A DNA stretch of 5,231 nt from a virus (lineage: Duplodnaviria; Heunggongvirae; Uroviricota; Caudoviricetes). The stretch lies in IMG/VR virus record IMGVR_UViG_2667527898_000016; one strand, 5' to 3'. Made by a program: the position numbers. Shown piece by piece: positions 1 through 3,000 of the stretch (positions within the stretch are counted from its first letter, which is position 1; each line of letters opens with the position of its first letter).

Positions 1-3000
1 CATGTTTTACGGCAGTGAGAGCAGAGATAGCGCTGATGTCCGGCGGTGCTTTTGCCGTTACGCACCACCCCGTCAGTAGCTGAACAGGAGGGACAGCTGA
101 TAGAAACAGAAGCCACTGGAGCACCTCAAAAACACCATCATACACTAAATCAGTAAGTTGGCAGCATCACCCCGCGTCTCTAACAAAATCCTTCAGCCCG
201 GGGAAGCGTATGTGTGCAAACCCGAGAGATACCGTACTATCGCCTGATGCTGCATTTACCTGTGCAGTTAAGCAACTCATCACCAGAACTGCACACGCAA
301 AAAATTTCATGATACTTTTCATTTTAAGTATTTCTCTGAATTAAAGGATGCGATGTCTGAAAGGAACGCTTTCGTTTTACACTATTAAAGTTTTTCTTAC
401 GCTAATCATATATTGAGGAATTAATAACCAGAACTTTATCTATATACGGCTTTCGGATATCCCATGTTGCACCACCGGAATAATGCTCACAGGAATATAT
501 TTTATTTCCTGTAGCACCAGTGGATGTGGTGTAAATCGGTCGGTCATAAGGTGTTCGTTTCCAGTTATAATATCCAACCAGTGCAGGCATAATTGCGCAT
601 GGATATCCAAGGTCCTTCTCAAACTTGATATCAACTGGTATTAACTTCGCGTCAAGCAGCATCATTTCGCCATGGTAAATCATCTCACCCGACGGGTTAT
701 ACATGGCGATACCATACTCAGAAGGTTGAGTAACCATATTCGCAAAAGCATAAACAGTCGTAACACCGGGATTCGTTCCCCTGACAATTTGATGAAGCCT
801 TAAGGCATGATATCCATCAATTTGTTCATGCGTGTACATAACATCGGCCTTTTTCTCTGTTCTGATAAAGAAAAAACAACTTTTTCCTGACGGGATTGAC
901 GTTTTAAAAAAAGCCTTCTCAGTCGCCGGAATAGTTCCCTTATTGATCAGACACTGAGGCGTAAACCCCGGGCTTATCCACAAGCTGCCATCTGGTTTCG
1001 TAATGCTTAAACCATACATACAACTCACCCCCAGAATGTATAAATATATGACCCCATCCCCTGTTCAAGATTCGACCACGTCACCGTATTGCCATTAATG
1101 GTTATCTTCGGTACTTTCCGGTCCTTAAATACATTATTCCACGGAAATAATGAACAGACTGCCTGCAATGTTTTCCCGTCGGGTTTATTAGTGTACGTCT
1201 TTGATCCCGACTCCGCCGTAAACCTGTCCAGGAAAAATATGGGAGTAAGCACGCCCGTAACATTAACATTATTTCTGTTGTATATTGCAAAACCATATTC
1301 TGCCAATGTCAGCCTCCGGCTCAGCTTAACCTGCCTATGCGAACAGCCAGGCGTCCGTTCTGGTCATAAACTTCAATTTTATCATTGCGGATCACCAGCC
1401 CCACATTCTGATTAGAGTAACGAATTGTCAGTTGCCCCTGCGACGTAACACTAAAAAGGCCACCAATATTCAGGTTACCCTGAGAATCAACCTGAAAGTT
1501 TCCGTTCTGAATAACGGCACTCCGGATAACTGGCGAAGTGATACTTACCCCGGCTTTTACTTCATCTGCCACAACCTTCCGCGACACCAGTGTTTCAATC
1601 ACCGCGTTATAAATCATCGCTTTCGGGATCACGACCTTGCCACCTGATACCGCAAACGGATAGGCGGTGTTATCCGGGTTGTTCGGGTCAAAGACAAACA
1701 GCTGCGACGCAGAAATTGCAACCTGACTTACAGGCCTGCCTTCACTGTCTTTTCCGGCGACAATCCCGATCCCCGCAGTGATGCCATCAACTCCCGCTTT
1801 TTTTGACCACATCGCAAGGAAGGCCTCACCGCCTTCTTTATCCAGTTTAGTGATGCGCTTGTCGACCTCATTAAGCGATTCACTGGTTGACGAATCCAGT
1901 GTGCTAATGCGGGTTTCAATACCACCAATCGTTCTTGTCGTTTCTTCCCTGAGAGTCCCCACAACTTCGGTTGTCTTAATTGCAGCATCCTTTACAGCCT
2001 GCCCCTGCGCGTTTTTTATTTCCTTGCGAAGCTCTTCTATGACGGGAGACTTCGCCGCCTCTTCTTTTATCTGGTCAATCACCGCCTGAACTGATATCTG
2101 TGTCTGTGCTGCCACGCCTGCCACTGCGTGCCACGGCCCTTTAACGCCTGCGGCATTCACAAACCTGATCCAGTAAAATCCCGACCATCCCGGATCAACC
2201 GGATCGCCGTAGACCTGCCCCGGCGTCGTGGCAACCAGCACGGCATCAGCAAGGTCATCCTCCGTACCCCGCCAGATTTCAGTCAGTGAATGACCGCGAT
2301 AATTCGGCATATCCCATTCAAGCAGTACCGAGCCAAATCCCCCTGTCGCCTTAAAATTCTGAGGTTTCGATGGGAAATCAACGACCATTACAGAGCTGTC
2401 CATCTCAATCCCCGGATTAAGGGCATATGCGGCACCACCTGAAGTCCGGCGACGGGCCAGCTTCAGACCGACCAGTTCTTCACGGGTTACAAAAGCATGA
2501 CGACCATCGCCACGTTGTCCTGTCCCTATCTCCATATTTTCCACAACAGCAGATAAATCCTTTCCTGCGCGCCACGGTTTTTTTGTCATACCGGCAGCTC
2601 CGACATCGATGTACTGAGTGTAATACGTTCAACCTGACCAAAACCGGAAACCAGTATCTGCCAGTTTTGCCCGGTTGCAGCAGGTAATCTCACAACGCTT
2701 CCCGAAAAGCTTCCAGGTGCAAGGTGAATCACCGGAACATCATCTGCCAGCACAGTAATTCCCACCCGCTCTGGCGTCGGAGACTTCACCCTGAGACAGG
2801 AGAAAGAGGTTCTTTCCGGAAGGGAAAATACCTTTGAATGCCATCTGATTGTCGACGGCAAACTCCCTCCGGCGATCGCAGACATATTTTGTCCTGATAC
2901 CACCCGCATAACATCGTTAACCAGGTCAACACATGCGCAGTCAAAAGGTGTACTGAGGTAGCGGATATCCATACCTGCCGGGTTGAAGACAAACACATCC

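Follow-up and report, generated by a model that had tools for sequence, protein, structure and literature searches.

A copy of the insertion sequence IS1 interrupts the lom gene of an Escherichia coli prophage in the stretch of DNA analysed here (5231 nt; hereafter, the window). We consider it probable that this IS1 arrived by simple insertion and that the rest of the prophage is retained beyond it. The original prediction placed the IS1 end in a non-coding spacer about 230 bp downstream of a tail gene module, and proposed that IS1 had truncated the element. The insertion point proved to lie inside a gene, and the apparent end of the prophage coincides with the end of an assembly contig. Furthermore, the opposite IS1 junction, bearing the same 9-bp target and followed by intact prophage DNA, was found in other E. 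coli samples.

An IS1 left end within lom

Positions 1–171 (minus strand) correspond to the first 171 nt of an IS1A-type element, as judged from two complete E. coli genomes, L001 and L002, which carry full-length IS1 copies (768 nt) whose nt 1–171 are 100% identical to this segment. The 23-bp left terminal inverted repeat (IRL; 149–171, minus strand) matches GGTGATGCTGCCAACTTACTGAT exactly, which confirms the predicted left terminus at position 171. The 5′ part of insA (3–116, minus strand; GTG start, 38 codons) is cut by the contig end, and its product matches the InsA zinc ribbon (Pfam PF03811 Zn_ribbon_InsA, E = 2.2e-22). The GTG at 116 corresponds to IS1 nt 56, in agreement with the start expected about 55 nt from the IRL. 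The exact IRL and the insA frame with its N-terminal zinc ribbon assign the sequence to the IS1 family. The window holds 171 of the 768 nt and ends at IS1 nt 171; the insB′ DDE transposase frame, reached by a −1 frameshift, and the right inverted repeat are present in the full IS1 copies of relatives. As predicted, InsA and the phage genes share one strand: insA (116 to 3) and every other gene of the window are encoded on the minus strand.

The IRL is adjoined by the 9-bp target CCGCGTCTC (172–180), which reads GAGACGCGG in the gene orientation, corresponds to lom nt 143–151, and would represent the left copy of a target duplication. Homology to IS-free relatives begins at 171/172, indicating that these 9 bp are indeed flanking target DNA, and IS-free complete genomes align without a break from this point onward. 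In those genomes, the RefSeq label across the site is "Ail/Lom family outer membrane beta-barrel protein".

The region 172–322 contains the beginning of an Ail/Lom gene that spans 738 nt (245 aa) when intact in IS-free relatives. In the window, the truncated lom (167–322, minus strand) consists of native codons 1–50 followed by G51 and a TGA stop, both contributed by the IS1 end, and its nt 1–152 are identical to the 738-nt lom of the IS-free contig L003. IS1 sits after lom nt 151, and the target spans codons 48–51. The insertion is thus inside lom, in contrast to the intergenic location originally proposed. The stub encodes a 51-aa product, composed of a signal peptide and about 27 further residues. 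The intact 245-aa ortholog from L003 carries a signal peptide and matches PF06316 Ail_Lom with 102.7 bits (E = 2.9e-29), whereas the 51-aa stub alone gave no match against Pfam, as expected. A complete eight-stranded barrel ending in a C-terminal aromatic residue is absent, as the window ORF ends after residue 51. We infer that the window lom is a disrupted, non-functional member of the Ail/Lom family, and that the practical consequence for the strain would be a Lom-null prophage.

These assignments leave only 323–401 as intergenic DNA within the supposed non-coding spacer (172–401), the remainder of which consists of lom codons 1–50. The description of this spacer as AT-rich was half right: the GC content is 31.6% in 323–401 and 41.3% over the whole of 172–401, compared with 49.3% for the window. 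What had appeared to be an AT-rich non-coding spacer is therefore the start of a known accessory gene. The 323–401 segment (minus strand) is the lom leader and presumably contains the promoter of the gene. Many Stx prophages have this segment in front of lom with 100% conservation, and a consensus scan detected no σ70 promoter within it. Lysogens of Phi24B express the lom ortholog whether or not the phage is induced (PMC3342100), and by analogy the present lom likely has its own promoter.

The prophage and its tail genes

Upstream of lom, we identified four genes on the minus strand that are homologous to consecutive genes of the prophage Sp5 of E. coli O157:H7 Sakai. The 205-aa gene product (402–1019) is 96% identical to Sp5 ECs1235, and the gene is a 618-nt CDS in relatives. 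The 93-aa product (1025–1306) is 94.5% identical to ECs1234. The 422-aa J-like "tail tip fibre" protein (1321–2589) is 94.8% identical to Sp5 ORF71/ECs1233 and contains a PF09327 Phage_Tail_Tip domain (E = 4e-11), while the 541-aa protein (2586–4211) is 95% identical to Sp5 ORF70/ECs1232. The stop codon of the 541-aa gene overlaps the start of the 422-aa gene. Judging from the gene order ORF70–ORF71–ECs1234–ECs1235–lom and the 94.5–96% protein identity to ECs1232–ECs1235, the element is a short-tailed, Stx-phage-like E. coli prophage of the Sp5/933W type (Sepvirinae). The DNA is 92–97% identical to that of Sepvirinae members, including Oslovirus GER2, Lyz12581Vzw, and many Stx2a- and Stx1a-converting phages, as well as non-Stx phages. 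The locus is collinear with Sp5 ECs1232–ECs1242, with about 95% protein identity.

According to the original prediction, no further late genes follow this module. However, all IS-free relatives that we examined have, after lom, hok/gef, genes for 133-, 218-, 148-, 83-, and about 421-aa proteins, and then a gene for a protein of about 2790 aa with LPD5, LPD1, MuF_C, and LPD38 domains. The window consequently represents the middle of the late region, rather than its end. The ORF79 homolog, one of the five small to medium-sized genes in this series, and the giant ORF80 homolog (about 2790 aa) are present in all IS-free relatives, and also in all contigs that contain the right IS1 junction described below. 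In Sp5, ORF70 (ECs1232) and the J-like DUF1983 protein ORF71 (ECs1233) are essential for tail formation, as are ORF79 (ECs1241) and the 2793-aa ORF80 (ECs1242), which lie downstream of lom (PMC5155283). The receptor-binding tail fibre of Sp5, thought to bind BamA, is ORF67 (PMC5155283), the position of which is upstream of the window. The term "host-range module" is thus a loose one: the two large genes of the window are ORF70 and ORF71 homologs and would serve tail formation.

The source contig and its end

Through an exact look-up of the 422-aa protein, we recovered the source of the window, which is the exact reverse complement of the entire contig CDQU01000165.1 (L007) of the E. coli draft assembly GCA_000936775.1. 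Position 1 is therefore an assembly break within a multicopy insertion sequence. Short-read contigs commonly break at IS1, because it is multicopy and the assembler cannot cross it; of the 5426 complete E. coli genomes, about 5000 contain IS1-like sequences, and the median number of places in a genome is 10. The identical lom/IRL junction is present in four sibling contigs from other assemblies or sequencing runs (L006, L008, L010, and L011). Their identity to the window is 99.98% or more, and all of them end 27–251 nt into IS1. A contig from ERR738833 is 100% identical to the source contig.

The stop at position 1 is an assembly artefact and has no meaning as a biological boundary. The same holds for the reported absence of further late genes after the cassette, as the whole contig simply runs out inside IS1. 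A contig ending in an insertion sequence should not be equated with the end of a genetic element.

The opposite IS1 junction in other samples

A simple insertion predicts a right junction in which the IS1 right end is followed by GAGACGCGG, the reverse complement of 172–180, and then by lom from nt 152 onward. It also predicts that gene callers would report Lom remnants of 155 or 131 aa downstream of the IS. Both remnants exist in the protein collection, and we fetched their contigs. In L022 and L031 (metagenome ERZ27246838), the sequence reads ATCAATAAGTTGGAGTCATTACC, GAGACGCGG, and GTGTTTATAACC in succession, corresponding to the IS1 right end, the 9 bp, and lom nt 152 onward, and IS1 is oriented as it is in the window. 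For the window copy, the corresponding right junction would read GGAGTCATTACC/GAGACGCGGGTGTTTATAACC. The contig L036 (ERZ28586990) has the same right junction, while L032 (isolate GCA_023871405.1) begins with CC and the 9 bp, and L033 (GCA_012923055.1) begins within the 9 bp. Thus, the 9 bp that flank the IRL in the window lineage also flank the right end of IS1 in L022/L031, L036, and L032, the two ends coming from separate samples.

The right-junction contigs are 100% identical to one another over 12–14 kb. They contain the intact remainder of lom and downstream prophage DNA for 12–35 kb, running through the 2788-aa gene into SocA-like and IbrAB-like genes. The two sides are bridged by IS-free contigs (L003, L004, and L005), whose identity is 99.88–99.96% to the window as far as the junction and 99.88% to L031 from the 9 bp on. 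In sequence terms, the L022/L031-type right junctions and the IS-free bridging contigs form the pattern that a single ordinary IS1 transposition duplicating 9 bp would leave.

The left junction was observed in GCA_000936775.1, GCA_000941535.1, GCA_000947375.1, GCA_010686555.1, and ERR738833, and the right junction in GCA_012923055.1, GCA_023871405.1, ERZ27246838, and ERZ28586990; SRR13318251 has the identical downstream sequence in a contig that begins past the junction. Among the matches listed, the left- and right-junction sample sets are disjoint, and both junctions were found in no single sample. As linking alleles between the two sides, we used the 423- and 2788-aa proteins and the 422-, 156-, and 145-aa products of the window, some of which were too common. 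Neither the right-side 131- and 155-aa Lom remnants nor the 423- and 2788-aa proteins returned a left-junction assembly among the matches listed, and the exact 422-aa allele of the window returned no right-junction metagenome among the matches listed. Exact-pattern scans for both junctions in the viral_contigs, metagenome_contigs, and genome_contigs collections gave no matches, and exact look-ups of the 51-aa stub and shorter versions returned no record. A homology search with intact Lom for N-terminally truncated cluster representatives yielded only frameshifted or C-terminally cut forms. Both junctions are absent from the 5426 complete E. coli genomes, in which the sole full-length match, NCCP15648, has a different IS1 site. 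The left and right halves may be from slightly different lineages, or else one half is missing in each.

A probable simple insertion and its alternatives

The most economical account is that an IS1 copy, oriented in the same direction as the phage late genes, transposed into lom nt 143–151 and would have duplicated the 9 bp of target by the ordinary IS1 mechanism. The insertion would have left a 51-aa Lom stub, composed of the signal peptide and about one strand, and so knocked out Lom. The 3′ part of lom, hok, the 133-, 218-, 148-, and 83-aa genes, and the ORF79 and ORF80 homologs most likely lie beyond the 768-bp IS on another contig, and the right end of the window's IS1 copy would be expected to adjoin GAGACGCGGGTGTTTATAACC. 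The founding event appears to have been a simple insertion, because elsewhere, in a prophage about 99.9% identical to the closest IS-free relatives of the window, the right end of IS1 is found in matching orientation beside these 9 bp, with intact DNA downstream. The window genome itself presumably retains such a junction beside its IS1 copy. The check originally suggested, a search for a matching target-site duplication at the far IS1 end, favoured a simple insertion as far as it reached, namely in other E. coli samples, where the same 9 bp with intact flanking prophage DNA were present.

The alternative that survives best, although we regard it as unlikely, is a truncation in the window lineage, in which IS1 removed or relocated the DNA beyond its right end after or together with the insertion, either by adjacent deletion or by recombination with another IS1 copy, and left the tail genes orphaned. 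The separation of the two junctions into different samples would fit such a history, as would the lack of the right-junction lineage's exact downstream proteins from left-junction assemblies among the matches listed. There is also precedent for IS1-associated loss nearby. In NCCP15648 (NZ_CP009050.1), a full IS1 that lacks a target duplication connects nt 909 of the tail-tip gene with nt 74 of lom, indicating a deletion of about 1.5 kb in the same module, and L017 has only 79 nt of IS1 beside lom, with unrelated DNA upstream. However, a few SNPs between the lineages or pseudogene annotation could account for the missing records, which concern only the matches listed. The sole positive reason for postulating a truncation, that the sequence ends, is the assembly artefact described above. 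Against it also stands the right junction, which has the same 9 bp and orientation and intact downstream DNA in a prophage about 99.9% identical, as gauged against the closest IS-free relatives. The original suggestion that IS1 may have deleted or interrupted the rest of the element holds with respect to interruption, since IS1 does interrupt lom, but a deletion is unsupported, given the far end with the same 9 bp elsewhere. An orphaned, truncated module is likewise not supported by the evidence, which points to an ordinary event.

It is still less probable that the right-junction contigs stem from an independent IS1 insertion into these 9 bp and thus are uninformative about the window copy. 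At least three IS1 hits fall within the first 170 nt of lom (at nt 74, nt 143–151, and nt 163), the neighbouring 205-aa gene has been hit as well, and the exact alleles differ between the left- and right-junction sample sets, all of which would be in keeping with independent hits at a hot spot. Nevertheless, the identical position and orientation in prophages about 99.9% identical make one event the simplest explanation, and the remaining hits are at different positions. The clustering is also biased, because the hits were found via truncated Lom products. The broader proposal, that the 5′ third of lom and its neighbours are a recurrent IS1 target or a site of selected IS1 knock-outs and deletions, is similarly doubtful, with odds slightly below those of a truncation. 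If it is true, Stx-phage-like prophages would regularly lose Lom by way of IS1, and follow-on deletions of the NCCP15648 kind would remove tail genes, resulting in fixed defective prophages.

An inverted repeat in the lom coding sequence

The region downstream of the tail genes was also predicted to contain an 8-bp-stem hairpin at 264–271/289–296. A hairpin is present, but the coordinates were 2 nt off and the full stem is 9 bp. The inverted repeat occupies 261–269 and 287–295 with a 17-nt loop (261–295), within the lom signal-peptide codons 10–21, and includes the octamers GTGCAGTT at 262–269 and AACTGCAC at 287–294. The local fold of the mRNA-sense strand has a free energy of −20.5 kcal/mol (z = −4.7), and 9-bp stems with loops of up to 30 nt occurred in 31% of dinucleotide-shuffled windows (mean 0.44). 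No T-run follows the repeat, and a terminator scan made no call. Furthermore, EC2 and GER2, whose lom alleles are diverged, lack the hairpin and show no compensatory changes.

A terminator or a conserved RNA was rejected on the basis of the coding position, the lack of a T-run or terminator call, and the loss in the EC2 and GER2 alleles, and we treat the repeat as incidental coding-sequence structure. The notion that 172–401 is a non-coding regulatory spacer, with the hairpin as a terminator or functional element that closes the tail module, is hardly credible: the repeat is real and its fold is fairly stable, but its location in lom codons refutes the notion as stated, and the absence of terminator features, the frequency of stems of at least 9 bp in shuffled sequences, and the EC2 and GER2 alleles all argue against it.

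Possible consequences for the prophage

In the window strain, IS1 would now lie within a single late operon, between the upstream ORF70 and ORF71 homologs and the downstream ORF79 and ORF80 homologs. IS1 is classically polar, and the production of infectious particles could fall or cease if this copy is polar as well. The late transcription of lambdoid phages is Q-antiterminated, and read-through of an IS may be possible; late transcription could then still cross the IS here. Both IS insertion into lambdoid prophages and their IS-mediated decay are well documented in E. coli. Both this type of event and this type of prophage are already known, and the present case adds no new biology.

Comparison with known systems

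The window shares with IS1A-type simple insertions in E. coli the IRL, the InsA zinc ribbon, and the 100% identity over 171 nt, with the 9 bp flanking the left end here and the right end in related samples, and differs in that InsB, the frameshift site, and the right end lie outside the window. A parallel exists in the same prophage module, as IS1 lies within the 205-aa gene of strains G1/2, G6/7, and G8, accompanied by the duplication CGCGTCAAG. NCCP15648 resembles the window in its IS1 orientation, the adjoining lom, and the prophage type. In contrast, its loss of about 1.5 kb occurred on the left-end side of IS1, which in the window is intact to the insertion point.

With respect to the late region of Sepvirinae (Sp5, 933W, Phi24B, and Oslovirus), the window retains the gene order of Sp5 ECs1232–ECs1242. 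Unlike Stx phages, it has no stx gene in view and its lom is disrupted, and its closest relatives are non-Stx prophages with a YadA-like adhesin gene upstream. As with Lom of phage lambda and other Ail/Lom morons, the ortholog lies just downstream of a J-like tail-tip gene, but the window gene is cut after codon 50, making a barrel impossible. The window allele is only 52% identical to Sp5 Lom across the first 50 residues.

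IS1 Insertions in the Prophage Module

The same prophage module has been struck by IS1 several times over in strains other than that of the window. IS1 occupies 6252-7019 in L002, a complete genome carrying the full element, and 6371-7138 in the related record L041, and it lies at the contig starts of the relatives L019, L020, and L023. In the relatives designated G1/2, G6/7, and G8, the 205-aa gene homologous to ECs1235 carries a simple IS1 insertion with a 9-bp duplication, CGCGTCAAG. A deletion-associated copy was found in E. coli NCCP15648, where the tail-tip gene is fused via IS1 to nt 74 of lom, the Ail/Lom outer-membrane gene. 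At this same lom position, a further relative, L017, has an IS1 tail of 79 nt (9725-9803). Elsewhere in the gene, at lom nt 163, a variant of IS1 is inserted in reverse orientation. The lom-located sites were obtained by a search via truncated Lom products, and the clustering of IS1 in lom is therefore biased.

Contigs joining the 5' part of lom to the IS1 left end (left-junction) and those joining the IS1 right end to the remainder of lom (right-junction) had no sample in common, among samples retrieved by protein look-ups. Among the matches listed, the exact protein alleles of the left-junction set were absent from the right-junction set, and vice versa.

The other end of the window contig falls inside a prophage-encoded gene for a YadA-like trimeric autotransporter adhesin (YadA_anchor), the last 32 codons of which occupy 5133-5231 on the minus strand. 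All sibling contigs, which share the lom-IS1 junction, begin no more than ~650 nt away. The position of these contig ends points to another repeat there, or to the edge of a variable region.

The structural module of this phage was also present in a 46-kb record deposited as an E. coli plasmid (CP085357.1), with hok, the tail-tip gene, a gene of YadA-like type, and a lom that is likewise disrupted. The record may be a phage-plasmid, or else a circularised or mis-binned prophage.

Features of the Neighbouring Genes

Within the lom signal-peptide codons, an unusually stable mRNA-sense fold was detected at 255-301 on the minus strand (-20.5 kcal/mol, z = -4.7). The fold is peculiar to the lom allele of the window and is missing from the diverged alleles of the relatives EC2 and GER2.

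The ECs1232 homolog is annotated in most records as a 541-aa form starting at ATG 4211. The frame remains open for 26 codons 5' of this ATG, up to GTG 4289, giving 567 aa, and the longer form is annotated in phage Lyz12581Vzw (CDS of 1701 nt). The interval separating this 541-aa gene from the 60-aa ORF contains a strong terminator-like hairpin (4368-4393) on the + strand, antisense to the minus-strand genes, with an 8-bp stem including six GC pairs, a 3-nt loop, and a following T7 run.

Downstream of lom, the right-junction metagenome contig L031 (ERZ27246838; 4373-12739) and relatives encode a giant protein of ~2790 aa with the polyvalent-protein domains LPD5, LPD1, MuF_C, and LPD38. Its homolog in phage Sp5, ORF80, is required for tail formation (PMC5155283).
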